The notes beneath the pieces were generated by a model. The model was not told the DNA's origin. It made no database searches and was given only the letters and a program-made list of their open reading frames with translations. Made by a program: the position numbers and the translations under genes. From NCBI GenBank assembly GCA_044356215.1, contig JBIKWQ010000004.1, forward strand, positions 3,748-67,747: a DNA stretch of 64,000 bases, in the 5' to 3' direction. Positions 36,035 through 57,097 of this stretch are shown in pieces. The DNA comes from Bdellovibrionota bacterium (GTDB lineage Bacteria; Bdellovibrionota_C; UBA2361; OMII01). The first letter of the stretch is position 1, and the number at the start of each line of letters is the position of its first letter.

Positions 36035-36108
36035 GCGCCTTTAGCTCAGTTGGATAGAGCATCTGGCTTCGAACCAGAGGGTCGGGGGTTCGAGTCCCTC
36101 AGGGCGCG
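36035..36108 (+). tRNA. tRNA-Arg (anticodon UCG)
   Basis: Cloverleaf with 7-bp acceptor stem GCGCCTT/AGGGCGC; anticodon loop CTTCGAA; T-arm GGTTCGAGTCC; no encoded CCA. Confidence 0.85.
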
Positions 36109-39293: not shown

Positions 39294-40394
39294 TTAAAAG
39301 CCAAAATCTACATCAAGGTCGTACACATCCGCGGCCTGCTCGCCGACCGAACGGATCTCCGTGCGGGCTTGCCCTGCGAAATCATCGAGGTTCTTAGGGC
39401 CGACAACGGCAAGGTTATCAAGAATAAATCGCCTAACCCTAATAACACACCACGGGCGCGCAAAACCGAGTGTCGCCAAGAGTAGGAGGGTGTTTGTTAG
39501 CGATATAAAAAAGTAGCGCTTCATAGCGGGCAGACAGCTAATAACGCAGCTTCCAATTGTGGCGTTATCCCAGACACGACGGGCCACCCCGAGCCTCATA
39601 TAGCCCGGCACCCACGCTATGACAACTAAGCCAAATAAGCTAACTGAACTGGCGATTGCCATTCGAGGTAATTGAGCAAGCGAGATATGTCCAGACTTTA
39701 TCATCGCTGAGGAGATTCCGCTGGTAGCTATTCCGCATATTACGATTAACGCTCCCACTACGAATAGTAATGTGGCAACCGCGTATACTCGGTACATCTG
39801 TCCAAGCGTTATCGGCGTCTTGAAAGAAGTGACCCCGTATTTAAGATTATTAACAGCGTATCGCTTTGAAGACAGCCGCGCCCACGGGGCGAGTAGCCAT
39901 AAAGTCATAATAGCGACAACTTTTGGCAATACACATCTCGTGAACGCCTCTCCAGCGGTCCCAGCAAAGTGAAACGAAAGATTTCTATAGCTCGTGTAAC
40001 GAGCCCGGAATCGAAGCGCCGCGGAGATTACCCAAGGCCAGCCAAGCGCAAAAAGCGGAACAGCAATGAGGATCCAGAGCCAAGAGATAGCACGCGCCTT
40101 AGTTATCACAATTAGAGCGGCGAAGAGAATCAGGCGACCTTTAAATATCTTCCATGGGTCCGCCGTGTATTCAAATTGCACACCGGCCAGCTCGGTATGG
40201 CTCATTAGGTACCGCTCGCGTCGCACTTTCGCCCACGGGGAATAAAATCCTAGAGTAATAATCGTAAGAGCTACATTCACTATCCAGATGCTGAAATACT
40301 CGCGGGCCGAACCCGTGAATAAAAAAGAATGCTCAACTGACTCATCTGGAGCTGCACGAGAGGAAGGTGGCGGAGGTGATTGCGTGACTGTCAT
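39294..40394 (-). CDS. DUF898/YjgN-family polytopic membrane protein
   Basis: Multiple TM helices with YjgN-like repeated W/R-rich loops; immediately upstream of, and presumably co-transcribed with, the M48 peptidase gene. Confidence 0.55.
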   Translation of the reverse strand: MTVTQSPPPPSSRAAPDESVEHSFLFTGSAREYFSIWIVNVALTIITLGFYSPWAKVRRERYLMSHTELAGVQFEYTADPWKIFKGRLILFAALIVITKARAISWLWILIAVPLFALGWPWVISAALRFRARYTSYRNLSFHFAGTAGEAFTRCVLPKVVAIMTLWLLAPWARLSSKRYAVNNLKYGVTSFKTPITLGQMYRVYAVATLLFVVGALIVICGIATSGISSAMIKSGHISLAQLPRMAIASSVSLFGLVVIAWVPGYMRLGVARRVWDNATIGSCVISCLPAMKRYFFISLTNTLLLLATLGFARPWCVIRVRRFILDNLAVVGPKNLDDFAGQARTEIRSVGEQAADVYDLDVDFGF

Positions 40395-40479
40395 GTTTGG
40401 CTAGTACTAGTTGAAAATCAATTGATAACAAATGGTATCAGCAAACTATGATGTCGGTAAACCGGAGATGTAGCTGGCC

Positions 40480-40884
40480 TCACAATAAATCAACCGCGCC
40501 AGTTTTTCTTAGTGTCTCGTCAGCGGTAGCGAATACAAGTTTGTTCTCAAGAGCAGTAGCCACTAAGAAGCGATCGGCTGGATCGCCGTGATCAAAGTTA
40601 AGTCTTCGCGATCTGAGCGCGATTGGAAAGGTCAGCGGGGCCTCCTTAAGCGAAAATTCGGAGAGCGCTGATTTAATCCAAGAGGCGGGCGTTCCCTTTA
40701 CCGCTAATCTGCCTCTCTCTATCAGTAAGTGAGCCTCCCAGATTGAAACCGGACTAAGGAATAGCTCGTTGTCTGGATTGTCTAGCCCGACTTTTTGCTT
40801 CTTGTTTAATCGCTTGTCACCAAGCAGGTACCAGAGCCAAATGTGGGTATCGAGCAGGATCCTCACTTTATGAGCGCCTCCCAA
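40480..40884 (-). CDS. vapC: PIN-domain ribonuclease toxin (VapC-like)
   Basis: N-terminal LLDTHIWLW PIN signature with conserved acidic residues; overlaps the upstream antitoxin by 22 nt. Confidence 0.75.
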   Translation of the reverse strand: MGGAHKVRILLDTHIWLWYLLGDKRLNKKQKVGLDNPDNELFLSPVSIWEAHLLIERGRLAVKGTPASWIKSALSEFSLKEAPLTFPIALRSRRLNFDHGDPADRFLVATALENKLVFATADETLRKTGAVDLL

Positions 40885-41102
40885 TCGTTATCGGCAAGAG
40901 GGGAGACGAGGTCCCCGACTTTCCCGGATAGGGTGTCTTTTAAAGCGCCATATGAACTCTTCGAACGCTTGGAATCTGCTGGATAAACAACCGCCAATGG
41001 CTTTCCGTTCTTTAGGATCTCGATCGGCTCGCCAGTGGTCTTTACTCGCTCAAGAAGACGCAAACAGATAGCTTTGAACTCAGAGACGTTAATTTTTTCC
41101 AT
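40863..41102 (-). CDS. Phd/YefM-type antitoxin
   Basis: 79-aa protein with Phd/YefM-like N-terminus (INVSEFKA...LLERV...GEPIEI..NGKP.AVV). Confidence 0.65.
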   Translation of the reverse strand: MEKINVSEFKAICLRLLERVKTTGEPIEILKNGKPLAVVYPADSKRSKSSYGALKDTLSGKVGDLVSPLADNDWEALIK

Positions 41103-41113
41103 TCTTCTTTAAG

Positions 41114-41140
41114 TATAGTCAAATTATATGACTATAGTCA
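41114..41140. promoter_or_regulatory. Palindromic operator upstream of the antitoxin gene: TATAGTCA-N7-TGACTATA overlapping a second TATAGTCA
   Basis: Perfect 8-bp inverted repeat 12-39 bp upstream of the antitoxin start; contains TATAGT/TATAAT-like -10 hexamers. Confidence 0.6.
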
Positions 41141-42517
41141 ACTTGTATTCCTCCCCCCCAACAACACCCCAAGCATCAACAGAAACGGTCTCTGATCAAG
41201 AATATTATGACTAAAAAGCCCACCAACGGCGGCCACAATTATCAGAGCTACGCCGTTGCGGCAGCCTCGCTTCGCAAAAGTTACCATCGAGCAGATGAGG
41301 AACCCCAGGTAGGTTATTAATCCTAGCGCTCCGTTATTTATCCACTGCTGGAGATAGATATTGTGAGGCAGCTCAGACATCGTTCGTGAGAAGCCAGTTC
41401 CGTGACCGAGTAAGGGGGCCTCCTCAATAAGTTCGATCCCCTCAACTACGGCGTCTAAGCGAGTTCCAGCGGAGCCGTCATCAACCTGCTGGTTGTTTAG
41501 TAGTCGCACAAGACGGGACTTTCCCTGTGTGCTAGAGCTTAATTGAGCGAACGTGACAGCGAATCCAAGAGCTATCACCGCTGCTAGGCATATAATCACT
41601 ATCTCCGAGGCGATTCGGGAGCGGGATAATCCGGACTTAAAGAATCTGTAATAGATAGCTATTCCTAAGAGGGCCAAAAATACTACCAGTCCGCTACGCG
41701 ACATGGTCATGCAGACGGTAGAGAAAGTTAAGAGGAGCAGGATAAGGTTGAGCACCACGCTGGTTTGATTGGCCTTTGGCGTGACGCGACCTTTTGGCGT
41801 TCCTAGATCGATCGCTCCAGCGCAGACAATCACCGCTACAAGACTTGAAAAGTTAGCGTTCCCTGAGAATCCCGCTGGGCGATTCGTTATCGGAGCAAAT
41901 GTGCCTGGATGGAGGGTGTCGTACCAGACTGAGGAAGCGAGGAGCAGAAGGCTGCCCAAGGCCGAGAGCTTTACGGCGCTAGAGGTCGTGCTAAAGCGCC
42001 CCATGATCGCGGCGGATGCGGTAATACATAACCCGTATGGAATCAGCAGTATCCACTTAGCACCCTCGCTCCAGAACGCGCCGGGCAGAGCCGAGAGTAT
42101 CAGGGCTAATAGAGCCACCAATGAGAAGGGGACCAGAACCGTAGCATTCTGCCTAAAGACCGTGATTGGACCTTGAACGTAGCTATGGCGCAGGTGTTTA
42201 AGCGTTAATAGAAATATAAATGGAGTCAGCGATACAAGGCATAGGATAGTAGCGCCGGTCGGTAGTTTCCCACCGTGACCAAGAGCTTGGTCAGCGACAG
42301 AGAAGAATAGGATAAGTAGAGCGAAGGTATAGCTAAAAAGAAGAAGCGATCTAAGTGAACTAGTAGGTGATCTTGAGTGTATTGAGTGCATGAACTGCCA
42401 TTTGTAAGTTTCCGCGATAATCTCGTCATTTCCACCTGGATTCCAATGCGCTAGCGCATATCGGACTGAACGGTGTTGAGGGTAAGTTCGGTGCATTTGG
42501 CACTTTATGACGCACAC
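41138..42517 (-). CDS. O-antigen ligase/polymerase family protein (Wzy_C domain, WaaL/Wzy-like)
   Basis: ~10 TM helices and a C-terminal HNIYLQQWINNGALGLITYLGFL-type Wzy_C motif; true start probably internal to the ORF. Confidence 0.7.
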   Translation of the reverse strand: MCVIKCQMHRTYPQHRSVRYALAHWNPGGNDEIIAETYKWQFMHSIHSRSPTSSLRSLLLFSYTFALLILFFSVADQALGHGGKLPTGATILCLVSLTPFIFLLTLKHLRHSYVQGPITVFRQNATVLVPFSLVALLALILSALPGAFWSEGAKWILLIPYGLCITASAAIMGRFSTTSSAVKLSALGSLLLLASSVWYDTLHPGTFAPITNRPAGFSGNANFSSLVAVIVCAGAIDLGTPKGRVTPKANQTSVVLNLILLLLTFSTVCMTMSRSGLVVFLALLGIAIYYRFFKSGLSRSRIASEIVIICLAAVIALGFAVTFAQLSSSTQGKSRLVRLLNNQQVDDGSAGTRLDAVVEGIELIEEAPLLGHGTGFSRTMSELPHNIYLQQWINNGALGLITYLGFLICSMVTFAKRGCRNGVALIIVAAVGGLFSHNILDQRPFLLMLGVLLGGRNTS

Positions 42518-44018
42518 CCCCGAGTCCGACGGAAAGCGGATCCTTAGAGGATTCCAGTGGACCTATATCTCAGTAGCTTTGCAGGGGCTACTTAAACTAG
42601 TTGCTCTGATGATACTCGCGCGGATACTCACTCCGCGTGATTTCGGTCTACTTGGATTCGCTCTTATCTGCACAAACTTCGTGGAGCGAATCGGGCAGGG
42701 GGGCTTCGCTCCCGCGATTGTACAGGTCGAGGAAGCTACTCAGAGCATAATAACAACAGCTGCGCGCACTAGCGTTGCTTTCGGCTTCTTTTCGATGGCT
42801 GTTTTGGCTCTTAGCTCAGGGGCGGTCGCCACGTTTTTTGGTGAGAGGGAGTTAGCTCTTGTAGTCATAGCGCTCAGTGTCGGATGTCTAATCGAATCTA
42901 TAGTCGCGATACCAGAGGCTTTGTTACAGCGAGAGTTGCGGCTCAAGGAGATTATGTTGGCCGAAAATGTAGCCTATCTGATATCAATGATCGCGATCTG
43001 CCCAACTATGGCGCTCTTTGGTTGGGGCGTCTGGTCATTAGTCATAGCGCAGCTCTCTTTGAAGGTAATTAGGTTAGTTATGATTCAAAGAGCGGCGCCA
43101 CCTTGTCTGTCAGGTATGTGGTCGACAGTGGAGGCGCTCAAGCTGACAAAGCTAGCATTTGGTTTTAGCCTAGGAAGACTCCTAAATTTCTTCTCGCTGC
43201 AGGGAGATAATTTTGTAGTCGGAAGGCTTTTAGGTACTGAGGCGCTTGGAATGTACAACCGAGCCTATCAGCTGATGACCCTGCCAGCGATGTACTTCGG
43301 TCAGGTATTCGAGCGAGTTATGTTTCCGGCGATGGCTAGAAAGCAGAGCAACAAGAAGGAGCTGGGAGATGAGTTCCTAATTGCACTTGAGGTGATTACA
43401 GCGATAGCGCTGCCAGCAGGGGTGGTGATGTTTGCTTTGGCTAACGAGATCGTGCTTGTTGGGTTTGGACCTCGGTGGATAAGTGTGGTTCCAGTGGTTA
43501 GCGTACTTTCCTTCGGTGTCTTTTTTAGAACTGCCTATAAATGCAGTGATACAGTAGTGCGGTCGTTAGGAGCAGTTTATGATTATGCCGGTCGACAAGC
43601 TCTGTACGCAACCCTTGTGATCGGAGGGGCTTATTTCGGCGCTAAGTATGATCAGATAGGTGGTGTCGCCGTCGGAGTGGTCTTAGCTGTGGCGATTAAT
43701 TATGTTTCGATGACCCGACTTAGCTCAAAACTTTTAGGTTTGAGGATACGTCAGATTGTTTGGACGCACGCGCTTGGGATCTGGAGCAGCCTTTGGGTTA
43801 GTGCCGGGTTGGCGTTGGCGATGGGTGAGCTCAGAAACCTGGAGCTATCGCCTGTGATATTATTGATGACGGCAGTAGCGGTTGCTCTTATTAGCTGGAC
43901 ACTCAGCGTTCTAATTGCGGCACTGCTTGTTCCGTCCATTAGTGTACGTAGAGCAATGATATATTTAAGAACGGCTAGGAGGGTTAACCGTATTGGGGAG
44001 CCAAGGGGGATTGTTTAG
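42507..44018 (+). CDS. wzx: Wzx-type polysaccharide flippase (MOP/PST family)
   Basis: 503-aa 12-14 TM protein with PST-family N-terminus; divergent from the ligase gene. Confidence 0.75.
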   Translation: MTHTPESDGKRILRGFQWTYISVALQGLLKLVALMILARILTPRDFGLLGFALICTNFVERIGQGGFAPAIVQVEEATQSIITTAARTSVAFGFFSMAVLALSSGAVATFFGERELALVVIALSVGCLIESIVAIPEALLQRELRLKEIMLAENVAYLISMIAICPTMALFGWGVWSLVIAQLSLKVIRLVMIQRAAPPCLSGMWSTVEALKLTKLAFGFSLGRLLNFFSLQGDNFVVGRLLGTEALGMYNRAYQLMTLPAMYFGQVFERVMFPAMARKQSNKKELGDEFLIALEVITAIALPAGVVMFALANEIVLVGFGPRWISVVPVVSVLSFGVFFRTAYKCSDTVVRSLGAVYDYAGRQALYATLVIGGAYFGAKYDQIGGVAVGVVLAVAINYVSMTRLSSKLLGLRIRQIVWTHALGIWSSLWVSAGLALAMGELRNLELSPVILLMTAVAVALISWTLSVLIAALLVPSISVRRAMIYLRTARRVNRIGEPRGIV

Positions 44019-44024
44019 TTCTCC

Positions 44025-44046
44025 TTTAGGGAAGGCCGGCAAAACC
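44025..44046. repeat. Solo copy of the 22-bp repeat TTTARGGAAGGCCGGCAAAACC (same as the MITE-like element ends)
   Basis: TTTAGGGAAGGCCGGCAAAACC 7 bp after the wzx stop; matches 46128-46149 and the reverse complement of 46367-46388. Confidence 0.7.
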
Positions 44047-44164
44047 TCGCTTGCGCGATATTTTTTTAGAAACGGCGCGTTTGCGCCGTTTAGGTAGATG
44101 CTGCTGTTGCCAGAAGCTGATAATATCTGTGGCATGACACAGAGAACATTCGCTTAAACTAAAC

Positions 44165-44190
44165 TGGGCATCGAATGCCCTTGTCATTTT
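44165..44190 (+). terminator. Possible short terminator hairpin
   Basis: GGGCAT-CGA-ATGCCC followed by TTGTCATTTT. Confidence 0.3.
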
Positions 44191-44253
44191 GGCTTTCTTA
44201 GCGAAACAAGAAAGGACTAATGGTTAGTGCCGTTGTAACTACTGGCCTTGAGC

Positions 44254-44916
44254 TTATCGGGCCCCCGAGCCTGAAAGCACGACAGAGATAGTTTTTAGTG
44301 CTATCCAGAGGTCAAGTATAAGGCTCCATTGTCGTATGTATATCAAGTCTAATCCGAGTTTGCGGCGGTAGCCTAACACTCCGTCAGGGTAGCCCTGAAT
44401 GACTTGGGCTAAGCCAGTTAGCCCAGCCTTAGCTTGTAGCCGCTGATGAAACCGTGGAATTGACCCAGAGAGCTGCGCGGCTATCTCAGGCCGCTCAGGG
44501 CGTGGACCAATAAGAGACATGTCTCCACGCAGAACGTTAAAGAGCTGCGGAAGCTCATCTAATCTCGTACGGCGTAGAAAGCGCCCGATCGGCGTCACCC
44601 GATCGTCAGTTCTTGCCGCCAAAGTCGCGCCACCTTCGGATTCAGCATCCACTCGCATTGAGCGGAACTTCCACAGTGTAAACTCTCTGCCCCCCTGTGT
44701 GAGTCTGGTTTGACAGTAAAGTGCTGGCCCAGGTGAAGTGAGTTTAATAGCAATCGCGACCAGTATCATTACCGGAGAGAGAATTGCAATTAACGCTAGT
44801 GAAGCTAAGAGATCAATCCCTCTTTTCAGCAAGCCAGAGAGGCTATTAAAGGCTGAACCCTTCTCTTTATTAATAATGTGTGACGATCCCATGCTACATC
44901 CTTTTCTACTAAACAC
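44254..44916 (-). CDS. initiating sugar phosphotransferase (WbaP/PglC-like monotopic phosphoglycosyltransferase, bacterial sugar transferase family)
   Basis: Single N-terminal TM then conserved PGT C-terminal domain motifs (RPGLTGLAQV, DL.Y). Confidence 0.8.
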   Translation of the reverse strand: MFSRKGCSMGSSHIINKEKGSAFNSLSGLLKRGIDLLASLALIAILSPVMILVAIAIKLTSPGPALYCQTRLTQGGREFTLWKFRSMRVDAESEGGATLAARTDDRVTPIGRFLRRTRLDELPQLFNVLRGDMSLIGPRPERPEIAAQLSGSIPRFHQRLQAKAGLTGLAQVIQGYPDGVLGYRRKLGLDLIYIRQWSLILDLWIALKTISVVLSGSGAR

Positions 44917-44988
44917 TACCGTCCGCTGTGGCGAGGATCACAGCGGCTTAAACTCAAAAGATGGTATTAGATTTCTCGGTTTTTATTT

Positions 44989-46098
44989 ATGCGTGTAGTC
45001 ATTCTTTACAATTCAAGTTGGTACGTTTTTCTTTTAAGACGGAATCTCGTCTTATCGTTACGAGCTCTAGGGCATGAAGTTACTGTCATAGCGCCGGTTG
45101 ATCGTTACACCGAGCGAGTAAAACAGATGGGTGTTTCTTTCTTACCGATTGCGATTGATGGAGCTGGGCGCTCTCCTGTTGGTGAGGTGAGGACTCTGAC
45201 ATCAATAAATAGGGCACTAAAAACAGCGCGACCTCACGCGGTTCTATCTTTTACAGTTAAGTGCAATCTCTATGCAGGTCTATGCCGTCGATTCATGGAT
45301 TTTAAGCATATCGCCAATGTATCAGGGTTGGGTGAGCTCTTTGATTTGAACTCAAGGCTTAAAAGAGCCGCCGAGCTGCTTTATAGAATAGCTCTTGGAA
45401 GAACTAACGTAGTCTTTTTTCAGAATGAACAAGATAAGGATCTACTTGTTAGCAACGGCGCGGTAGAACGCGCCCGTTCGCGTGTAATTCCGGGCTCCGG
45501 TGTAGATCTTGAGCGTTTTACGGCTGACCTTAGGATGCCGAGCTCACAGAGGACGTTCCTTATGTTTGGCAGGCTACTTCCGAAGAAGGGTTTTGATCAC
45601 TTCATCAACGCGGCGCGCGAAGTGCGTCAGCGGCTTGGAGATGATGTGGCATTTTGGATTATGGGTGCTGCCGACCCGCAGCGCGCTGAGTCCCTGGAGC
45701 TACTTGAGCGGGTGAATGGCGCACATGCAGAGGGAATAATTCGGTATCTTCAATCCACAGATGATCCTTTGCCGACTATTAAAGAGAGTGACGTGGTAGT
45801 GCTCCCTTCTACATATAATGAGGGGATACCGCGTTCGTTACTAGAGGCACTAGCTTGTGGCAAGCCTGTTATCACAACGGATTGGAAGGGGTGCCGGGAG
45901 ACCGTAGAGGATGGAAGGAATGGATTTCTTGTCAAGCCAAACGATACCAAGTCGCTGGTAGCTGCGTTTGAGGCCGTGGCAAAAAAAGAAGCAGATGAGC
46001 TCCTTTTGATGGGGCGCAACAGTCGAGAGTTAGCGGAGCGTCGCTTTGATGAAAGGGTGGTGTTGGATGCCTATCTGGGGGCGTTGGGAGAGGAATAG
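44989..46098 (+). CDS. GT4-family glycosyltransferase
   Basis: C-terminal EX7E motif (STYNEGIPRSLLEALACGKPVITTD); 369 aa. Confidence 0.8.
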   Translation: MRVVILYNSSWYVFLLRRNLVLSLRALGHEVTVIAPVDRYTERVKQMGVSFLPIAIDGAGRSPVGEVRTLTSINRALKTARPHAVLSFTVKCNLYAGLCRRFMDFKHIANVSGLGELFDLNSRLKRAAELLYRIALGRTNVVFFQNEQDKDLLVSNGAVERARSRVIPGSGVDLERFTADLRMPSSQRTFLMFGRLLPKKGFDHFINAAREVRQRLGDDVAFWIMGAADPQRAESLELLERVNGAHAEGIIRYLQSTDDPLPTIKESDVVVLPSTYNEGIPRSLLEALACGKPVITTDWKGCRETVEDGRNGFLVKPNDTKSLVAAFEAVAKKEADELLLMGRNSRELAERRFDERVVLDAYLGALGEE

Positions 46099-46127
46099 GG
46101 ATAATAAAGGATTTACCGAGGTTTTCA

Positions 46128-46388
46128 TTTAAGGAAGGCCGGCAAAACCCCTCCCTACTGCGAAAGCGGATCTTGAGCTGCTCTTCGAGTTTTCGAGATG
46201 GGAAAAAATCCTCAATGTATCACAGCGGATACACTTCCGACCTTCGCTAAAGCTACGGCCGGCGAGATAATGTAGGACCAGACGTAGCCGTGGCGTAGTC
46301 TGGTGCGGTTTTTCCCCATCTCGAAAATCGAATATCAACTCAACCTCCACTTTCTCGCTACGGGTAGGTTTTGCCGGCCTTCCTTAAA
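46128..46388. mobile_element. MITE-like 261-bp element with 22-bp terminal inverted repeats TTTAAGGAAGGCCGGCAAAACC and extended internal dyad symmetry
   Basis: Left end 46128-46149 is the exact reverse complement of right end 46367-46388; internal second inverted repeat (TTTTCGAGATGGG(G)AAAAA); a solo end copy at 44025; the 73-aa ORF inside it is probably spurious. Confidence 0.6.
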
Positions 46389-46553
46389 CAAAGAGTAAAA
46401 GAGATCGGCGAGCCTTAAAAGGGTTTTTACCTACTTTTTGTCCTGATTACTTTCTGTGAAGCCTTATCTCCCAGGATGTGGGTAATGGTCAGACGGAAAG
46501 GGAGGACAACAGTGGCAGATCGGGTACGTTCACGAGCACGATCAAGTGCCTCT

Positions 46554-48920
46554 TTAACTCCGCCTCGGATAGTTTGATCCATATGCCATAATATCGCTGG
46601 CTGAGTCACTCTTAGTTGCCCCATTGAGCACAGTTCCGATTATCCTTGCGCGGACCCGAGTCAGCTTCTCTCGAGCCTCACGCACCGTATGTCGCGGAGT
46701 AAAGCCGCCACGAACAACTAGAATAACACTGTCCACTGCACGAGATATTAACAGAGCATCAGCCACTGCCATAATCGGTGGAGTATCTACCAAGATAAAG
46801 TCATACCGATCCTTGAGTCCGGAGAGCAATCTTTTCATACTCTCAGACCCAACTAGCTCAGCCGGATTTGGTGCGGGAGCTCCAACTGGTAAAAGGTCAA
46901 GACCCGGTACTCCCGTTTCGTAAATGACGCTCTCAAGCGGCAATCGCAACGTTAGTAGGTCGCTCAAGCCACGGTGTTCCTCATGTTGTCCAAGAAATAA
47001 CTTGCTTAGCCCACACATCCTTAGGTCGCCGTCAATTATTAAGGTCTTGTGATTCGCTTGTGCCAAGGTAACTGCAAGGTTAGATAGTAGCGTTGTTTTT
47101 CCCTCACCCTGAATCGAGCTAGCTATCATAATCACCCTAGGTGGATAGTCAGCCGATGAGAGTAGGACGTTTGCTCGGATACTCCTGAGGGACTCTGATA
47201 TCGCCGTGTGCGGAGCGGAGATGGTGACTAACGCCTTGCTCTCCGTGGGCCTATCTTCACTTAACAGAAGCTTCTCTTTTGATTTAGCGACATCCTCGGA
47301 CTCCTTTGATTCCGGTAAATGATCGATTACTCCAGGAGTCTTCGTAAGGGTTTTATCTTGTGAATTGAAATCAGGTACTGACCCCAGTAGCGGAAGATCG
47401 ACGATCTGTCGGAGCTCTTGTGTAGTAACTATAGTATCGTCTAAAGACTCGAGAATGTAAGACATGAGAATTCCGGCGCTTAGTCCGACTATAGAAGCTA
47501 AAATCACGATTATATTGGTCTTAGGAGCACTTGGAGATGTAGGAAGCGTGGCATAGTCAGCAACAAAAACATTTGATGTAGTTACCGAGGCACTCATCTC
47601 GATCTCTTTGGCCTGTTTTAATACGGCTTGATAGAGTTCCCGAAGAGAAGAGGCTTCCTTACTGAGTACGTCATACTGAATAAGTTTCTTTGCCACGTCC
47701 TGAGCTTTCGACTTTTCGCTCTCTATCTGATCCCTAAGGGAGTTCTCCGCGTTGTTGTCGGCGCTAAACTGGGCTTCTAAAGACTGCAGGCCCTGTTTTC
47801 GCTCATCGCGGATAGCCTTTCGGAGCGCTGATATCTTAGCTTGAAGTTCACGCATGGTGGGATATGCGGCTGTCACCTGACTACCCAAGCTGGCGTACTC
47901 GGTCTCCGACTGTTTTAGACTGGCGCGTAACTGCTGTGTAATTTCGCTATCAAAAAACGTACCTTCGTCTTCTCGTTGTTTACGGGCCTGGTTGAGTGCG
48001 CTCTCTGATTTAATTCTTTTTCCCGTCGCGTCCGCTAGCATCTGAGCCAGTGACTCAATATGACGGTGATTTAGTCCAGCGCCGTCGTTATTCCTGACCA
48101 AAAGCAATTTGTTCGCTGATGCATAAGCGCCCAATTGATCCTCGGCGGCGGCTACTCGCTCCCGTAGTGCGTCACTTTGAGCAATAAGAAGTTCTATGTT
48201 CGCGTGGATCGCCCCTTGACGTTCGCGTTTTAGATGCTCAATGAACTCGGTAGCGTGCAAATTCGCGATCTTTTGTGATAGGGCGCGATCTGTTGTTGTT
48301 GCTTTTATGTGGACGAGGTTAGTTTCATGAACCGGATTGATATCGATTAATGAGAGGTAGCGGTTGATCTCGCCAGGGGAGTGCTTGAAAAATCCGGAGC
48401 CCTTTATTGGAGTCGCACTCTCTGCACTTGATATAGTCGGAGCTATCGTTCTGAGCAGCTTTGATAGTGTAGCTTTTAAAACGGATTTATCCTTCCAGTA
48501 ATTGCCAAGATCTCGATGGAGGTTGTTCTTTCCCAGCGCAGCGTCGGCTAGTCCAGCAAGCTTCAGTTTCGCGACAGTTGTCTTAAGGTACTCAATTTTT
48601 CTCGAATCTGTTCCAAAGAGGTTCTCGCTCTGAATTGAGGCTAAGATCGGGGCGTGGCCGCGTAGCTCAATCGTTGTATCGGCGGTGTAAGACGAAGGAG
48701 TTAGATAGCAATAAGCTAGAGCTATAAAAGCGGCGCCACAGCAGTGAGCTATAATCAATTTAGAGCGCTTCTTAAGTAAGGAGAAAAGGTGGGATATCTC
48801 GGTTTCGGAGGATCCCTCGTTTTGCATGCCACGCTCTAGGTATGGCGGATAGAGGTAGGTACTTAGGTCTCCGTCCTGAGAAACAGGAGTCAATTGGTAT
48901 AGCGAGTGCTGGTGTGACAT
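46554..48920 (-). CDS. wzc: polysaccharide co-polymerase / BY-kinase (Wzc/GumC-like PCP2a with C-terminal P-loop ATPase)
   Basis: Wzz-like N-terminal domain, two TMs, long coiled-coil, Walker A SIQGEGKTTLLSNLA and Walker B VDTPP; Tyr-poor C-terminal tail. Confidence 0.8.
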   Translation of the reverse strand: MSHQHSLYQLTPVSQDGDLSTYLYPPYLERGMQNEGSSETEISHLFSLLKKRSKLIIAHCCGAAFIALAYCYLTPSSYTADTTIELRGHAPILASIQSENLFGTDSRKIEYLKTTVAKLKLAGLADAALGKNNLHRDLGNYWKDKSVLKATLSKLLRTIAPTISSAESATPIKGSGFFKHSPGEINRYLSLIDINPVHETNLVHIKATTTDRALSQKIANLHATEFIEHLKRERQGAIHANIELLIAQSDALRERVAAAEDQLGAYASANKLLLVRNNDGAGLNHRHIESLAQMLADATGKRIKSESALNQARKQREDEGTFFDSEITQQLRASLKQSETEYASLGSQVTAAYPTMRELQAKISALRKAIRDERKQGLQSLEAQFSADNNAENSLRDQIESEKSKAQDVAKKLIQYDVLSKEASSLRELYQAVLKQAKEIEMSASVTTSNVFVADYATLPTSPSAPKTNIIVILASIVGLSAGILMSYILESLDDTIVTTQELRQIVDLPLLGSVPDFNSQDKTLTKTPGVIDHLPESKESEDVAKSKEKLLLSEDRPTESKALVTISAPHTAISESLRSIRANVLLSSADYPPRVIMIASSIQGEGKTTLLSNLAVTLAQANHKTLIIDGDLRMCGLSKLFLGQHEEHRGLSDLLTLRLPLESVIYETGVPGLDLLPVGAPAPNPAELVGSESMKRLLSGLKDRYDFILVDTPPIMAVADALLISRAVDSVILVVRGGFTPRHTVREAREKLTRVRARIIGTVLNGATKSDSASDIMAYGSNYPRRS

Positions 48921-48928
48921 ATCTTTAG

Positions 48929-50044
48929 CTAGTTAACTCTCTTATTCACCGCAAATCCGTTAAAGATTCCGTTTATTGTTTCAACGATCTGACGTTTAAA
49001 GAACCTACCCGAATGACTGGGGACCCTAACAAGGTCTCCGTTCCGAAGCCTGACATCTGGGCCACCACGCAGGCCGACCTCTTCAAGGTCAAGAGAGATT
49101 AGAGCTTTTCGCCCAGCGCCTACATCACGAATTACCTCAACGTTGTTAACGTCGGCTGAGTATGTGAATCCTTTTGCCGCCGCGATTGCGCCGATTACTG
49201 AAGTTCGTCCGGTCAACTTAAATGAGCCTGGCGTTGCGACCTCGCCGTCGACCTCGTATGTTCCGGCCTCAGGAACTATGATCGTGTCACCTGGAGCCAG
49301 GGGAATAGTTAGTGGGCGCTTGTCGATAGTGCCGATAAGGTCCTCTAGGTCTATCTCTATGCCGCTTCCGTTGTCGTTGGTTTGGGTGCTAACAAGCGAT
49401 AAGGTTGGAGTACCCGAGTTTTTCACTGGAATGGGCTCCTTTATCTTTGGGGTTGGTAACAGGATTATCCGAGTGCCTGCTGCTGGAGAACGACCACCAG
49501 CTTCACTTAAGAGCTCAGTTAGTAGTACGCCGCGGCGGGTTAGGGGATATGTCCCAGGCTTGTTAACCTCACCTATGACAGAGACCCGACTCGTAGAGAA
49601 TGTCTTTAATGAGACTAGAACCTGTGGTGACCTGATAAAACGTGAATACCGTTTGGCGATGGCTGATTGTGCTTCCTCAACAGGCAGGCCTCCAACATCT
49701 ACCCGACCAACAAGTGGGAGAATTACTGCTCCATCAGAAGCTACAGCGGAGTTGGCAGTTAGGTTGTTGAATCCAAAAACCGATACGTCTAGGACATCAC
49801 CGGTTCCGAGTGGATATCCCCCTCCAGAGCCTGTGTTTGCTAGTAGGTTTTTGCGCGCATCTATTAATACAGAAACCCTTTGAGAAAGATTAGCCTCGTA
49901 GCCGTTGAACGCGTCGATTCCATTCAGCAGATTTGGGCTGCCCTGGGATTGATGTTGGGGTGATTCAAGCTCCTTGTGCGATGGCGTATAGCGCAAGCAT
50001 CCCGTAAATAAAACTAGAATTATGGTGATAAGAAGGTATCTCAT
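48929..50044 (-). CDS. wza: outer-membrane polysaccharide export lipoprotein (Wza family)
   Basis: Lipobox LFTGC, Poly_export motif and SLBB-like repeats; directly upstream of wzc. Confidence 0.8.
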   Translation of the reverse strand: MRYLLITIILVLFTGCLRYTPSHKELESPQHQSQGSPNLLNGIDAFNGYEANLSQRVSVLIDARKNLLANTGSGGGYPLGTGDVLDVSVFGFNNLTANSAVASDGAVILPLVGRVDVGGLPVEEAQSAIAKRYSRFIRSPQVLVSLKTFSTSRVSVIGEVNKPGTYPLTRRGVLLTELLSEAGGRSPAAGTRIILLPTPKIKEPIPVKNSGTPTLSLVSTQTNDNGSGIEIDLEDLIGTIDKRPLTIPLAPGDTIIVPEAGTYEVDGEVATPGSFKLTGRTSVIGAIAAAKGFTYSADVNNVEVIRDVGAGRKALISLDLEEVGLRGGPDVRLRNGDLVRVPSHSGRFFKRQIVETINGIFNGFAVNKRVN

Positions 50045-50232
50045 GGCTAGTAGCTCTTATATTGAGTCGAGGGGAGATAATGGCTCAAGATTGACCGTGT
50101 GTGAGATAACAGCCGTCATTATACAGCATATGAAGTTCAAAGTTCACGTTCCGAAGGTAATTAATGAGGTTGATTATTCGTCTCGGAAGCCGCAAGATGA
50201 CGGCCAGAGGCGGATTTATTTAAATCTTAACT

Positions 50233-51195
50233 ATGAAGAAGGTATTGGTAACAGGAGCTGCGGGATTTATCGGTTCGCATGTGGCAGAGGCTCTGCTCAA
50301 GCGTGGTGACCAGGTAGTGGGAATAGATAACATAAACGACTATTACCCAGTTAAGTTTAAACGTGAAAATCTGGAGATCCTCGCACGCCATCCCGGGTTC
50401 AAATTCGTTGAAGGTGAGTTAACAGATAAGCACCTTGTAGATTCACTCTATGAAACAGAGGGATTTACGCATCTAGCGCACTTAGCGGCGAGGGCAGGAG
50501 TCAGACCCTCAATAGCCGATCCAGGGTTGTATCAGCGCGCTAATATCGAAGCCACTTTAAACCTGCTTCAGGGAGCTGTAGGTAAGGGCCTAGAGAATCT
50601 AGTTGTCACGTCTTCTTCTTCGGTTTACGGAAATTCGAGAGCAATACCTTTTCGTGAAGATGACTCGGCAACTGATAGACCGATCTCTCCTTATGCAGCG
50701 ACAAAGAAGGCCACTGAGGTGTTGAGCTATACGTATCATTCTCTTTACGGGCTCAATATAAATGTAGTGCGCCCATTTACTGTTTACGGAGCTAGGGGGC
50801 GTCCTGATATGGCCCCGTGGCTGTTTATTGAGTGGGCACTCCAAGGAAAGAAGATCCGCAAGTTCGGCGATGGAACAACGCGCCGTGACTATACTTACAT
50901 CGGCGATTTTGTTGCGGGCTTCGTAAACGCTATAGATCGTAACTTTGGCTACGAGATCTTTAATCTTGGAAATTCGGCTACGGTTTCGCTGAATGAGGCG
51001 CTCGATATCGTGCGAGAAGTGACCGGCAAGGAACTTGTGATCGAACAGCTCCCGGAGCAGCCGGGGGACGTGGCGATCACAAACGCTGACATATCGAAAT
51101 CGAGAAGGCTTCTTGATTACGATCCTAAGACATCTTTTGGGGCAGGGATGCTCAAGTTCTGCCAATGGTACAAAGAGAACCGGCTAGGGCGGTAA
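50233..51195 (+). CDS. NAD-dependent nucleotide-sugar epimerase (UDP-glucuronate/UDP-GlcNAc 4-epimerase-like)
   Basis: GAAGFIGSH Rossmann motif, YxxxK (YAATKKA); 320 aa. Confidence 0.8.
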   Translation: MKKVLVTGAAGFIGSHVAEALLKRGDQVVGIDNINDYYPVKFKRENLEILARHPGFKFVEGELTDKHLVDSLYETEGFTHLAHLAARAGVRPSIADPGLYQRANIEATLNLLQGAVGKGLENLVVTSSSSVYGNSRAIPFREDDSATDRPISPYAATKKATEVLSYTYHSLYGLNINVVRPFTVYGARGRPDMAPWLFIEWALQGKKIRKFGDGTTRRDYTYIGDFVAGFVNAIDRNFGYEIFNLGNSATVSLNEALDIVREVTGKELVIEQLPEQPGDVAITNADISKSRRLLDYDPKTSFGAGMLKFCQWYKENRLGR

Positions 51196-51235
51196 GCTAA
51201 CCGGTGTAACCAGTTTTCTAGGTCTGTATATCCAT
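51164..51235. repeat. 72-bp direct repeat, copy 1 (covers the epimerase 3' end)
   Basis: Identical to 52700-52771; encodes the epimerase C-terminus (QWYKENRLGR*) on the + strand. Confidence 0.9.
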
Positions 51236-51405
51236 TTTACCCCGTGAACGGTTACTCCATTTCGTTCATGGACTCTGTTATGAGGCTTATCGATGTGCGA
51301 TCGGGCTTAAGTCCATAAAGCTGGGGCACACCAACAGTATACCATAAATTTAACACCTGTTTAAAATACTTTACATTATATTGAATAGGTATTAAGTTTA
51401 CAGCT

Positions 51406-52602
51406 ATGAGTACTAGAGCCCTTTCCTCGCATATTCTCGCCGATTTAAAGGGTAAAAAGATGGTAATGCTTTCCGGCCCTCGCCAATGTGGAAAAACGAC
51501 ATTGGCGAAAGCGCTTCCTGAACTATCTTCTGATATGGCGTACTACAATTGGGATGTTGCGCCGCACAGAGAAAAACTTAAAAATTACAAACTTGATGAA
51601 TCAAAGCACTATTGGGTTTTCGATGAACTTCATAAATATCGAGCCTGGAGAAATTGGCTCAAGGGGGTTTACGATTTACACCATACACATCATGAAATTT
51701 TAATAACTGGCAGCGCACGACTTGACCAGTACGCACGAGGGGGAGATTCACTCCAGGGCCGCTATTTTCACTACCGTTTACACCCCTTTACCTTAGGGGA
51801 GGTTCTTAACCTACCAGAACAAAATTATCGCAAATCCTTAGAACGAGCCGCTAAGGTTAGTTGGTCTGCTCACGCTCAAAATACACTGCTAGAACTATTG
51901 AAATTCGGTGGCTTTCCGGAGCCTTTTTTAAGTAAGTCGACAAGCTTTGCAGGTAGATGGCGCTTGGCGTACAGCCAGCGTTTGGTGAACGAGGATGTTA
52001 GAACACTTGAACAAACGCAAGAATTAGATCAGATGAGTTTATTGTACGACCGCTTACCAGACTTAGTTTCGAATAATCTATCGATCAATAACCTAGCAAA
52101 AGATCTGGAGATCTCCCACCAAACCGTCGCTAAGTGGATCGGAATTTTTGAGAAATTATATGCTAACTTCTACGTCTTGCCTTATGGTGAGCCTGCAATT
52201 AAGGCCATAAAAAAAGAAAAGAAACTGTATCTCTGGGATTGGGCGCGCCTATCAGATCCAGGGGCGAGGCTAGAAAATCTCGTAGCGCTGCATTTACTAA
52301 GGTTAGTGCATTGGTTTGAGGATATCTACGGAGAGATACTTGAGCTCAGATATATAAAAGATATAGATGGGCACGAAATTGATTTTTTACTCCTACGTAA
52401 TAAGCTTCCTTGGATTGCAATAGAAGTCAAAAACTCTGAGCAAGGCATCAGTACAGGTTTTAAATATTTGTTGAATAAAATTAGAATTCCATATGCCTAC
52501 CAGATCCATTTAAAAAGTGAACTAGTTTATAAACTCGCTAACATAAATCAGAGCACTGTTTATGCTTTGCCAGTGAGCAATTTTCTTTGTGGATTACCGT
52601 GA
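51406..52602 (+). CDS. AAA-family ATPase of the DUF4143/AAA_14 type
   Basis: Walker A GPRQCGKTT; typical ATPase plus DUF4143 C-terminal architecture; markedly AT-rich relative to its flanks. Confidence 0.75.
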   Translation: MSTRALSSHILADLKGKKMVMLSGPRQCGKTTLAKALPELSSDMAYYNWDVAPHREKLKNYKLDESKHYWVFDELHKYRAWRNWLKGVYDLHHTHHEILITGSARLDQYARGGDSLQGRYFHYRLHPFTLGEVLNLPEQNYRKSLERAAKVSWSAHAQNTLLELLKFGGFPEPFLSKSTSFAGRWRLAYSQRLVNEDVRTLEQTQELDQMSLLYDRLPDLVSNNLSINNLAKDLEISHQTVAKWIGIFEKLYANFYVLPYGEPAIKAIKKEKKLYLWDWARLSDPGARLENLVALHLLRLVHWFEDIYGEILELRYIKDIDGHEIDFLLLRNKLPWIAIEVKNSEQGISTGFKYLLNKIRIPYAYQIHLKSELVYKLANINQSTVYALPVSNFLCGLP

Positions 52603-54107
52603 GAAGTTCTCTGGCGCAGGGTCGAACGGGTCGTAGGAGGGTAGTTCATCGAGAGCCTCTGACGCATCGATGAACTTCGGGATGGGGGGGAGGTGCTCGA
52701 ATGGTACAAAGAGAACCGGCTAGGGCGGTAAGCTAACCGGTGTAACCAGTTTTCTAGGTCTGTATATCCATCGTGATTTCGGTCTGACATAGGGCTCCGC
52801 GGTAGCCTTAATCTTCTTGTTCGATTCGGAGATGAACGTGAGGTCCCGCCAGCCCTCAGACACCCAGATACACAGTCTTTGAGGCTCCCGGAACGGTTGG
52901 TAACATCGGATATGATCCGCTGATCGATAGGGGAGCGATTGCGCGGTCGGCTACCTACATCCGAGATAAGTTTTGAATACGCGGCTTCGCTCGGAAGATT
53001 GTTGAAGGCACCGGAGGTAATTGGTGGATATCCGGCACGAAAGGTTTCTTCATCAAGCTTGGTTAACGACCAGGACCTGTTGCTATTTAAGTCGCCTTTT
53101 AGCTCGCTATCCTCGATATAGATCCGGCTGGAGATCGCTAGTGCGCTAGCATATATCGGAGGTGCGACAAAGCTCCATGGACCTGGAATGTAGGAGTTGC
53201 CTATGAAAGTAAGAGAAACGGGATCGGCGGTGCCGTCATTATTTGATATGTTACAGAGAGACCAAGGGCCGCGGCCCCCCCAGCCGTAAACGGTATTGTT
53301 GATCATCTCTACTGAGGCCCCCGGTTTGATATAGGGATTGCGCTCCTCGTTTGATGCAATCAGATTGTTGCGCAGCGTAATTCTCTTCGAAAGGTCGCCA
53401 ATCATGACTCCTTTGCTGTGAGGTCCTTTTGGATGGATGGAGTTGTACAGCCCTTCGGCGATAAGGCAATTAGAGATAGTAACATCGTGAGTGTTAGGGT
53501 AGGCAGTTGAGATATTCTCATCAACTGCCCACGTCAATGAGAGGTGATCGACAACTACGTTGTAGGCTGATCTCGGAGGTGCGGCGCCTATGGACACCGC
53601 GTCTCTAAACCTGGGTTCAACGCCGGTATGATTGTCTCCTGGACGGACCGCAAGATGCTGCATCAGAACGTCGTGAGTTTCGACGCTAAATCCGCCCTGA
53701 GTAATTGTAATACCGGGATTGGGGGCGGTTTGTCCTGCGATAGTTATGTACGGATGTTTAATTTTTAGGATCGACTTAAGCCTAATCTCACCCGAGATCT
53801 CAAAGACGCATGTGCGGGGTTCCTTGGCGTTGATGCATTCCCTGAGCGAGCCAGGACCAGAGTCAGACAGACTTCGAATTCGAAAGATCCTAGTACGCGG
53901 TTTTTTTAGGTGGCGACCGCTTCCGGCCTGTGTCTCGACTCCGAATCCAGATAGCCCGGGTATTATAGGTAAATCGCGGCGTGTGTTGATGTCGGCTGCC
54001 GTTGCAGAGAGAACTTTACCCGATGCAATTGGTTCGGCTATCGAATTGAATAGTGTCGCGGCAAAAATTGCGACAGCAACAGGGGAGAGATCTTTAAGTA
54101 GGTCCAT
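52560..54107 (-). CDS. secreted right-handed beta-helix polysaccharide lyase (pectate-lyase family)
   Basis: Signal peptide MDLLKDLSPVAVAIFAATLF, pectate-lyase-like motifs (HPYITIAGQTAPNPG, DHLSLTW, DGYTDLENWLH); the C-terminal ~60 aa after ENWLHRL is low-complexity and is encoded antisense to repeat copy 2 and the insertion's right edge. Confidence 0.65.
   Translation of the reverse strand: MDLLKDLSPVAVAIFAATLFNSIAEPIASGKVLSATAADINTRRDLPIIPGLSGFGVETQAGSGRHLKKPRTRIFRIRSLSDSGPGSLRECINAKEPRTCVFEISGEIRLKSILKIKHPYITIAGQTAPNPGITITQGGFSVETHDVLMQHLAVRPGDNHTGVEPRFRDAVSIGAAPPRSAYNVVVDHLSLTWAVDENISTAYPNTHDVTISNCLIAEGLYNSIHPKGPHSKGVMIGDLSKRITLRNNLIASNEERNPYIKPGASVEMINNTVYGWGGRGPWSLCNISNNDGTADPVSLTFIGNSYIPGPWSFVAPPIYASALAISSRIYIEDSELKGDLNSNRSWSLTKLDEETFRAGYPPITSGAFNNLPSEAAYSKLISDVGSRPRNRSPIDQRIISDVTNRSGSLKDCVSGCLRAGGTSRSSPNRTRRLRLPRSPMSDRNHDGYTDLENWLHRLAYRPSRFSLYHSSTSPPSRSSSMRQRLSMNYPPTTRSTLRQRTSHGNPQRKLLTGKA
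52700..52771. repeat. 72-bp direct repeat, copy 2 (encodes the conserved C-terminus of the pectate-lyase-fold gene on the - strand)
   Basis: Identical to 51164-51235; its reverse complement encodes HDGYTDLENWLHRLAYRPSRFSLYH; a degenerate ~35-bp extension upstream resembles the epimerase 3' end with a G7 homopolymer. Confidence 0.9.
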
Positions 54108-54207
54108 CCGGAGAGAGATATCAGTCTCCGAAGTTATCAAGGATGATCCATGTTACTTGACGCGCAGATGATGCGATGTAACACATCTCTGGCGTGAGTT
54201 TCGGCGC

Positions 54208-54846
54208 TTAAGCGGATCTCTTTATGCCGCCGCTTCTTGATCTTTTTGATACGCCTGTGCCAGTTTGGCCATAGTTGAGTGCCGCAACTTTCGTGCGTGA
54301 GCTAGCTGTCACAGGGGCATTTCCTGATGCCTCTAGGCGTCCCTGAATGAGCCTCTCTCCGGCTCTGAATGAAGTCGTCGCTTTCGTATCTCCTAGCGAA
54401 TCCCACGCGGCGTCTATGTTATCGTCTAGCTGCGCCGAGGCAAAAGCCAGATCTCTGATCTGACTGGCCTCCTCTTGTGTCATTAGGGTGGAATCTACGA
54501 AGAACTTTAGTGACTCTTTAGTCGCTCGCTCAGCAGAGGCAAATCTCTCCGTTGGTGGCTTGTCTGCCATGTTAAGTTTAAAGGCTGACCGAAAATCCCT
54601 GGCTATTGAGTCCCCGAATCGATTTTTGATTAGCTGGTGAGCCGTAGCGGCAAAAAGTTCCTCTTCGTTTACCTCTCCTGGCTTAAACGTGTTGCCGAGA
54701 AGATTCCGCAAAGTGCGCCCAAACTCAGTGGTCGGGGTTGAGCTTCGAGACGGTTTTCTTCTCTGATTCCGAACGCTTAGAGCCTCTTGTGTTGGCTCTT
54801 TGCGGGCAGCTACCTTAAATTTGGGGCTAATCTTCATAGCGGTCAT
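54208..54846 (-). CDS. hypothetical protein (basic termini, no TM segment)
   Basis: 212-aa ORF divergent from glmS; no recognisable motifs. Confidence 0.4.
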   Translation of the reverse strand: MTAMKISPKFKVAARKEPTQEALSVRNQRRKPSRSSTPTTEFGRTLRNLLGNTFKPGEVNEEELFAATAHQLIKNRFGDSIARDFRSAFKLNMADKPPTERFASAERATKESLKFFVDSTLMTQEEASQIRDLAFASAQLDDNIDAAWDSLGDTKATTSFRAGERLIQGRLEASGNAPVTASSRTKVAALNYGQTGTGVSKRSRSGGIKRSA

Positions 54847-55083
54847 CCTTGTGCCCTCATGGGCTTACTGCGACTATCTTGAAGAAGTTACAGCAATCTT
54901 AATGCCAGGGGCGGAGGTAGAGGCAGGGGATGGCTGGCGGAGTATTCTCTGGTGTGACGTAGGTCGTGACACTTTGCGCGCTCTTGAGTACACTGTCGGC
55001 TGCTAGTTGCTTGAAATAGCACGATGATCTTTTATTCGTCGAGTGATTGGCAAGTCTTGGGGCGATTAACTAGGAGTTCCTTT

Positions 55084-56925: not shown

Positions 56926-56966
56926 GTCGATGGTCAATCCCTAAATAGGCTTTATATGGTCAATCC

Positions 56967-57097
56967 CACGTGAACGTGCTCCTGCACGTGCTCGTAAACG
57001 TACCCGATTTGCCACTTCTGCCATCTTAGTTCGGCTTCTGAATGACCCTGAATTCGGGTACGTTTCTCGTTTACGTGCACGAGCACGTTCACGAGGC
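56967..57097. repeat. Long imperfect inverted repeat (~45-bp arms, ~42-bp spacer) between glmS and mraZ
   Basis: Arm 56967-57007 (CACGTGAACGTGCTCCTGCACGTGCTCGTAAACGTACCCGA) versus arm 57050-57097 (GAATTCGGGTACGTTT...ACGAGCACGTTCACGAGG); preceded by a 12-bp direct repeat ATGGTCAATCCC x2. Confidence 0.6.

Follow-up and report, generated by a model that had tools for sequence, protein, structure and literature searches.

A non-coding palindromic MITE with IS5-like ends in a bacterial EPS locus

The classical MITEs of bacteria are Correia/NEMIS of Neisseria, ERIC/IRU of the enterobacteria and RUP of Streptococcus. These elements measure 100-300 bp, carry terminal inverted repeats (TIRs), lack coding capacity and occur in dozens of dispersed copies. 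They come in size variants that arose by internal deletion or insertion, form long hairpins when transcribed and have occasionally inserted into genes. Correia and RUP duplicate the dinucleotide TA, and to our knowledge no target duplications are made by the elements of the REP/REPIN type. The insertion sequence IS5 duplicates 4 bp at the sequence YTAR (PMC10359306).

Here we describe a repeat found in a 64,000-nucleotide stretch of DNA (the window). The window is chromosomal, as indicated by nuo genes and the genes for EF-G, EF-Tu, SecY, GlmS and a PBP, and it includes an EPS/capsule locus in which the repeat lies between the convergent genes GT4 and wzc, whose stop codons are separated by a spacer of 455 bp (Table 1). 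The nearest relatives with a name are metagenome-assembled genomes (MAGs) labelled Pseudomonadota bacterium, to the proteins of which EF-G is 93-94% identical, and related copies of the repeat were recovered from MAGs that bear the labels Bdellovibrionota and "delta proteobacterium". The lineage is an uncultured freshwater one, represented by metagenomes only. A first, sequence-only reading had described the repeat as MITE-like and had offered three options: a non-autonomous mobile element, a REP-like repeat family, or a structured RNA/terminator module. In the recurrence of the repeat within one EPS locus it had also seen a hint that glycosyltransferase cassettes may be shuffled or insulated. 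The data collected below make us fairly confident that the repeat is a copy of a non-coding MITE family that is probably moved by an IS5-like transposase.

Extent, ends and internal symmetry

The ends of the element were set by aligning 33 related copies, and the element proper was found to measure 251 bp, which is below the limit of about 500 bp that applies to MITEs. The earlier description as a 261-bp element with perfect 22-bp TIRs was accurate with respect to the exact inverted repeat and had to be corrected with respect to the boundaries, the TIR being 17 bp long. The 22-mer TTTAAGGAAGGCCGGCAAAACC at 46128-46149 is indeed the exact reverse complement of 46367-46388, and was matched in none of 100 shuffled windows. 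It is composed of the 17-bp TIR, a palindromic 4-bp duplication and a single outermost T/A that pairs by coincidence. The left end of the element reads ...AAAACCCCTCCCTAC and the right end, when reverse-complemented, ...AAAACCTACCCGTAG; as a pair, the TIRs are GGAAGGCCGGCAAAACC ... GGTTTTGCCGGCCTTCC. Nearly all TIR columns are invariant in the alignment of 32 copies, and the conservation across copies ends exactly at GGAAGG...CCTTCC. The flanks CATT and ACAA, suggested earlier as a place to look, are not the target duplication; this is the TTAA at either side of the element.

The nested internal dyad symmetry that was noticed at the outset is present. An inner inverted repeat of 19 nt (95%) is formed by 46190-46208 and 46309-46327, the symmetry of the arms as a whole extends over 65 nt (78%), and the two arms of around 88 nt are identical to one another at 74 of 88 positions. 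According to the alignment, the most common form of the element, of 183 bp, is built of 92, 11 and 80 nt, and the 251-bp form consists of the same parts plus the central module of 68 nt. This length difference is not a multiple of 3 and therefore breaks the reading frame of the 73-aa ORF that had been predicted within the element. The ORF had no match in Pfam and no exact record in the collection, and a search of 5.8 billion protein clusters yielded only three weak matches to 'hypothetical' proteins. The suspicion that it is an artefact of the symmetry was therefore well founded. In annotation, the ORF is best left out of the list of genes and the spacer labelled as a mobile repeat.

Table 1. 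Positions of the element, its parts, neighbouring repeats and genes of the EPS/capsule locus within the window
Feature	Position	Strand	Remarks
MITE 'type A'	46133..46383	+ (strand label arbitrary)	aligns over its full length with 31 further copies on metagenome contigs, arms >95% conserved
Left TIR GGAAGGCCGGCAAAACC, 17 bp	46133..46149	+	exact reverse complement of 46367-46383
Right TIR, 17 bp	46367..46383	-	pairs perfectly with 46133-46149
Target-site duplication, left copy TTAA	46129..46132	.	single TTAA in the empty sites of L133/L134 and L126; family flank consensus YTAR
Target-site duplication, right copy TTAA	46384..46387	.	empty sites, YTAR flanks
Central 68-nt module	46236..46303	+	part of the 251/252-bp class, lacking in the commoner 183-bp class
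73-aa ORF, spurious	46129..46350	-	no Pfam match, weak hypothetical matches, frame-breaking size classes
Truncated 'type B' copy	44030..44091	+	left TIR 44030-44046, hairpin AAACGGCGC-GTTT-GCGCCGTTT, preceded by TTAG at 44026-44029
'Type C' repeat remnant	46388..46494 (other side 46115-46132)	+	recurs in L126 9758-10006, L133 8509-8735 and L125 2105-2198
Wzy	41138-42517	-	EPS/capsule locus
Wzx flippase	42507..44018	+	Pfam Polysacc_synt_3; type-B remnant starts 11 bp past the stop codon
Bac_transf	44254-44916	-	EPS/capsule locus
GT4 glycosyltransferase	44989..46098	+	Pfam Glycos_transf_1, Glyco_trans_1_4; stop codon 34 bp before the MITE
Wzc-like chain-length/tyrosine-kinase	46554..48920	-	Pfam Wzz, GNVR, AAA_31; convergent with GT4
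Wza	48929-50044	-	EPS/capsule locus

Copies, target sites and the putative transposase

A metagenome scan with a pattern that combined the 17-nt core with five semi-specified inner bases returned 45 loci, with 33 complete copies and around 25 single ends, most of the latter located at the ends of contigs. The related copies were all drawn from metagenome assemblies, closed genomes having contributed none. The lake metagenome Ga0214921 contributed 21 complete copies and 8 ends, distributed over 18 contigs of 5.8-165 kb that we infer to represent one genome. One of these contigs is 96% identical to positions 1-2291 of the window, and on this basis the population can be considered a sister of the window's organism. 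Between copies the arms exceed 95% identity, and the total length falls into discrete size classes: 183 bp (14 copies), 182 bp (2), 251/252 bp (8, among which the window copy), 275 bp (2), 299 bp (2), 259 bp (1), 222 bp (1) and, as deletion minis, 49-65 bp (3). The 275-bp and 299-bp forms each exceed the class below by 24 nt and owe this to additional hairpin-forming sequence at the centre.

Relatives outside this set were few. A scan of the genome collection with the bare 17-mer gave almost only chance matches among the matches listed, and a BLAST comparison of the element with the 79 listed loci revealed extended similarity in two of them only: a Bdellovibrionota MAG (L074) with a 57-bp mini-hairpin that has the same ends, and a 'delta proteobacterium' MAG (L031) with diverged copies of the element. 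Scans of viral contigs with TIR-A and TIR-B gave only chance matches, a BLAST search of the plasmid and phage collections with the element gave none, and no papers were retrieved by a full-text literature search for the TIR sequence. The present MITE family, which has an IS5-type signature, has apparently not been described before. The repeat also accounts for the contig breaks at the element in other assemblies: in one assembly of the window's strain (L080) the contig stops 25 nt into the element and in another (L081) near the centre of the palindrome, as may be expected because repeats and palindromes cause such breaks. A third contig of the same strain shows the same distance of 456 bp between the end coordinates of GT4 and wzc.

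The composition of the four bases that adjoin the element, counted over 85 ends, is C52/T32, T79, A78 and G55/A29, or YTAR. In 16 of 30 copies the two 4-bp flanks are identical direct repeats, as compared to the 6.2 expected on permutation (p<5e-5), and in another 10 the flanks differ at one position. None of the 30 complete copies has identical flanks of 5 or 6 bp. In all, 14 of the 30 copies carry imperfect duplications with mismatches at one or two positions, and these mismatches may reflect recombination between copies, misassembly of metagenomes at repeats, or mutation. Six identical pairs are non-palindromic (TTAG and CTAA twice each, CTAT and CAAG once each) and argue for a direct duplication, not an extension of the inverted repeat. 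Both the outer and the inner flank positions are also correlated in the way direct repeats are, with L0=R0 in 24 of 30 copies (p=0.0025) and L3=R3 in 26 of 30 (p=5e-5).

Sites that lack the element were found as well. Via homologues of the Wzc-like protein we reached the syntenic EPS loci L133 and L134 of related strains, where the site of the window copy is empty (Wzc-GT4 spacer, 8509-8534) and reads ...ACCGAGGTTTTTATTTAAACAAAGAG...; the site is equally empty in L126 (9758-9792), reading ...GCTGAGGTTTTAATTTAAACAAAGAG... These loci contain a single TTAA in the context ...GGTTTT(T/A)ATTTAAACAAAGAG, and the filled site of the window reads ...GGTTTTCATTTAA-MITE-TTAAACAAAGAG or, with a longer left flank, ...ACCGAGGTTTTCATTTAA followed by the 251 bp. 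A second comparison concerns the copy of L084, which adjoins CTAG followed by AATAAATTT..., and the 96%-identical L117, which is uninterrupted and has a single CTAG. Moreover, a 183-bp copy in L126 (5962-6144) splits an ORF. When this copy was removed in silico together with one flank, a GNAT acetyltransferase of 183 aa was restored, and the insertion junction falls within its domain (Pfam Acetyltransf_1, residues 50-156, E 9e-19). These data speak strongly for the proposal of a non-autonomous mobile element, as the repeat is multi-copy, makes target duplications, has empty sites and has disrupted one gene. Given copies that are more than 95% alike, differences in occupancy between strains and the interrupted gene, the family is young and apparently active.

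The combination of GGAAGG tips and a 4-bp YTAR duplication is the signature of the IS5 group, which is why an IS5-like partner is proposed. The ends of IS5 (IS5A) of E. coli K-12 read GGAAGGTGCGAA, and the first 6 nt of these are the tips of the TIR of the element; beyond these six the likeness is weak, with 10 of 16 positions matching by eye. A tblastn search of the window and all fetched loci, with E. coli InsH as the single probe, recovered no IS5-like transposase; the sequence searched amounts to a few hundred kb from the host population. On balance, we consider an IS5-group insertion sequence the likelier source of the missing activity.

It is unlikely that the partner belongs to another IS family, be it IS701, or an IS630/Tc1-like or IS427/ISL2-type element, the duplication of which would be limited to the central TA of a YTAR target. 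The negative InsH search would fit such a partner, and the duplications of the IS701 family are exactly 4 bp long (PMC2266710). However, the TIR consensus of that family, ---YACT-Y--YR (PMC2266710), does not fit GGAAGGCCGGCAAAACC, of which positions 4-7 read AGGC instead of YACT. With respect to the TA-duplicating families, both empty-site comparisons fit a TA duplication equally well: since both targets are palindromic (TTAA and CTAG), the empty sites by themselves do not separate a duplication of 4 bp from one of 2 bp, and to tell them apart one relies on the six non-palindromic pairs together with the permutation test. Judged by these two lines of evidence, the combination of a 2-bp duplication of TA and variable tips is the less likely candidate. 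The six non-palindromic tetramers and the correlated flank positions, and likewise the tips that equal those of IS5, argue against a partner from any of these other families.

In the preferred reading, in which an IS5-like enzyme mobilizes the MITE, a DDE transposase would be provided in trans and bind both 17-bp TIRs (GGAAGGCCGGCAAAACC), and the element would integrate at a YTAR tetranucleotide via cuts staggered by 4 nt. Repair of the gaps would then duplicate the target, in this case TTAA. The window copy landed in the spacer where GT4 and wzc converge, within a small repeat that is older. Instability of the palindrome would cause the family to shed deletion derivatives, such as the 49-65-bp minis and the stubs of 22-25 bp. 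Such stubs with duplicated tetramers are found in L126 at 3851-3875 (TTAG...TTAG) and 5518-5539 (CTAA...CTAA), and a similar one in L133 at 2094-2116; they would represent fusions of two TIR tips, formed by deletion across the long palindrome.

Sister repeats, the EPS locus and the hairpin

A third copy of the 22-mer had been pointed out directly behind the wzx stop codon, together with an adjacent palindrome. Both are there: the 22-mer at 44025-44046 with one mismatch, and the palindrome AAACGGCGC-GTTT-GCGCCGTTT at 44070-44091. This 'solo' copy had been taken for an end of the same element; it is a truncated member of a second, related family of around 100 bp (type B). The segment 44030-44091 is 88% identical to L131 8271-8335, the left two-thirds of a complete, palindromic type-B element of 101 bp (8275-8375). 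The latter comprises, in this order, a left TIR GGAGGAGCGGCAAAACC, a hairpin AAACGGCGCG-TTC-GCGCCGTT, a second small hairpin and a right TIR GGATTTGCCTCGTTTCC, and it occupies the Wzc-GT4 spacer of that sister strain. Complete type-B copies of 80-101 bp with both TIRs also occur in L101 (4139-4233, flanked by TTAA and TTAA) and L102 (5421-5505). The copy in the window retains a left TIR like that of type A and the hairpin and has lost the right TIR, so that it is probably immobile. A further repeat, type C, is the sequence into which the MITE inserted. Yet another type of palindrome was observed at 46511-46540 and 56966-57096.

It was correctly stated before that the + strand copies lie directly 3' of + strand genes, as wzx ends at 44018 and GT4 at 46098. 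A further idea, namely that the repeats serve as recombination substrates by which EPS gene cassettes are shuffled, is very unlikely. The EPS locus is a mosaic, with an identity between the window and L133 of around 100% from 40354 to around 43400 and of around 77% beyond, at least as far as 56287. In L133 the type-C segment that carries the insertion site lies in inverted orientation with respect to its flanking genes, and the combinations of types A, B and C in the spacers of the locus differ among strains, as the idea would have it. Nevertheless, the only recombination breakpoint that can be mapped is sharp and lies inside wzx near 43400. The nearest repeat, the type-B remnant, follows around 630 bp downstream and the MITE is 2.7 kb away, and the identity is equal (77-78%) on either side of the MITE spacer. 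For this one mappable junction, the repeats were therefore rejected as markers of EPS recombination. The family is furthermore spread over many unrelated loci, and for that reason the presence of the MITE in an EPS locus needs no special explanation. We give equally little credence to a broader version, in which the repeats of types A, B and C and the palindromes at 46511-46540 and 56966-57096 would be exchangeable spacer modules that provide portable homology for the swapping or inversion of cassettes and hairpins that insulate convergent transcripts. If true, it would explain why different repeat types are found in the same Wzc-GT4 spacer among strains.

A second functional reading is that of a structured RNA, terminator or insulator module under selection, the hairpin of which would stop or stabilize the convergent EPS transcripts. 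The RNA fold of 46128-46388 is one single long hairpin, as had been anticipated, and is far more stable than the shuffled controls on both strands: -123.3 kcal/mol on the + strand (z -11.4) and -142.5 kcal/mol on the - strand (z -12.8). The position of both the window copy and the type-B remnant just 3' of genes, and the type-B copy in the same Wzc-GT4 spacer of the sister strain, are in line with such a role. The fold is sufficiently explained by the fact that the two arms of around 88 bp are inverted copies of one another. Against a selected module we found neither a U-tract nor a terminator-like site within 46133-46383; the only nearby terminator-like hairpin is at 44166-44180, and the regional count of such hairpins is not above chance. 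In an Rfam scan of the window the only match was a tRNA (36035-36108), leaving the element unmatched. None of the 50 consensus pairs showed a compensatory change, and G-U pairs, of which one strand has 4 and the opposite strand 1, indicate no clear strand preference; both these measures are uninformative or negative as the copies are too young. Finally, copies lie in spacers of all three kinds, namely divergent (5), tandem (4) and convergent (3), as well as inside genes, and the length of the hairpin centre varies freely. Taken together, we regard an RNA or terminator module as highly improbable. Any transcript across the element would be certain to fold into a very long stem, and one could imagine an effect on mRNA stability, read-through or the expression of EPS genes.

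Comparison with known systems

The element is a real mobile repeat of an ordinary kind, and the functional ideas on EPS are unsupported. It leaves the general understanding of how MITEs work unchanged. Its family could provide strain-level markers for time-series of lakes, and points to a putative IS5-like transposase.

Among the described systems, REP and REPIN repeats resemble the element in being abundant, palindromic and mostly intergenic. Spread of the present repeat by a RAYT (Y1, IS200/IS605-like) transposase is hardly tenable: it would agree with a palindromic, mostly intergenic and multi-copy element that has a GTAG tetranucleotide within the sub-terminal ...CCCGTAGCG, but REP/REPIN repeats are short imperfect palindromes that depend on an associated RAYT gene and lack the architecture of TIRs plus duplication, whereas here the copies carry target duplications with a defined YTAR target, the empty site shows an exact TTAA duplication and the perfect 17-bp TIR with IS5-like tips suits a DDE element.

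The classical bacterial MITEs share with the element its size, TIRs, lack of coding capacity, dispersed copies, size variants, hairpin and gene insertion. No sequence similarity to Correia, ERIC or RUP emerged from the literature search for the TIR or from the BLAST searches of the plasmid and phage collections, and the duplication differs, being YTAR in the family of the element and TA in Correia and RUP. The MITE reported from Porphyromonas gingivalis to contain a minisatellite (PMC4596501) likewise has a centre that varies by repeated short modules. Host and sequence are different, and the modules added in the present family are inverted copies by which the hairpin is extended, in place of a tandem minisatellite. 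IS5 itself (IS5 group, IS5 family) is matched by the terminal hexamer GGAAGG at both ends and by the 4-bp YTAR duplication. The element differs from it by a TIR that agrees at 10 of 16 positions, by the lack of a transposase gene and by 88-bp arms that are mutual inverted copies, which turns the whole of the element into one hairpin.

Mosaic identity and a probable recent replacement within the EPS locus

Identity was compared between window positions 40354-56287 and two syntenic EPS loci of related strains, L133 and L131. Against L133 the window is around 100% identical until ~43400, which lies within wzx, and around 77% identical over the remainder of the EPS locus, while against L131 the identity is 88-100% and drops to ~78%. 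This mosaic pattern implies that a stretch of no less than 13 kb in this locus was replaced recently, with one junction within wzx.

The same two syntenic loci carry, beside wzy at about 13063-14073, genes annotated as a PhdYeFM antitoxin / PIN toxin pair. The aligned region of the window (40480-41102) contains two similarly sized small ORFs, which are candidate counterparts. Their coordinates, and those of most repeats and hairpins discussed below, are collected in the table.

Coordinates of repeats, hairpins and small ORFs in the window and in fetched loci (L-numbers)
Feature	Location	Remarks
Longer MITE forms	L086 505-803; L101 11846-12144; L097 1642-1916; L116 1216-1490	
TIR stubs, 22-25 bp	L126 3851-3875 and 5518-5539	Full left TIR joined to final 5-8 nt of right TIR
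Type C repeat	Window 46115-46132 + 46388-46494; L126 9758-10006; L133 8509-8735; L125 2105-2198	
Palindromic intergenic element, ~130 bp	Window 56966-57096	Directly downstream of glmS (55024-56925)
Short GC-rich hairpin, GGGCATCGAATGCCC	Window 44166-44180	Between convergent wzx and Bac_transf; T-rich tails, both strands
Small ORFs in the aligned PhdYeFM/PIN region	Window 40480-40884 and 40863-41102	- strand

Longer forms of the MITE, TIR stubs and the host sequence of the insertion

The centre of the MITE lengthens by steps of 24 nt, from 251 to 275 and then to 299 bp. The additional sequence includes inverted copies of the motif ACTTCGGCGAGCTC and extends the central hairpin. Diverged copies of the MITE hairpin (GGTAGGCCGGCAATAC...GGTTTTGCCGGCC) were also observed in a 'delta proteobacterium' MAG contig (L031, 1-250), interleaved with another palindrome (AGAAAAGCTGGCAAAACCC...); the tandem unit measures ~124 bp.

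At the other extreme, only short stubs of the terminal inverted repeats are present. Both stubs of L126, a locus that also carries a MITE copy, have a duplicated tetramer at their two sides (TTAG for one, CTAA for the other), and they look like deletion or excision leftovers of palindromic elements. A further stub, of 23 bp, is situated at positions 2094-2116 of L133, which is 99.9% identical to L134 across 8.5 kb. At the same positions in L134 the stub differs by four clustered substitutions (GGAAGGCCGGCAAAACC in L133 vs GGAGGCGAGGCAAAACC in L134), which amount to a switch between type-A (MITE) and type-B-like (sister family) TIR variants. The difference could reflect gene conversion among repeat copies or an assembly artefact.

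The sequence that hosts the MITE insertion in the window is itself a copy of a repeat, type C, whose full form measures ~250 bp and of which ~100 bp is missing from the window copy. Within L133, the type C segment has the opposite orientation relative to the neighbouring Wzc and GT4 genes.

Other hairpins and palindromes in the window

The GC-rich hairpin in the wzx-Bac_transf spacer may serve as the genuine bidirectional terminator there, though the regional count of terminator-like hairpin sites around it is not above chance. Another small repeat may be present at 30560-30619, 3' of an ORF ending at 30318. This segment has BLAST matches in up to three fetched metagenome loci. A 19-nt inverted-repeat pair is also located here (30477-30495 / 30598-30616), and the segment overlaps its second arm.

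The palindromic element downstream of glmS has arms of 24-29 nt, such as CCACGTGAACGTGCTCCTGCACGT. An arm motif, GTACGTTCACGAGCACG, is found again 3' of wzc (46511-46540) and in two metagenome loci (L122 3984-4011 and L123 1074-1110), and the palindrome and these recurrences probably constitute one more small repeat family.
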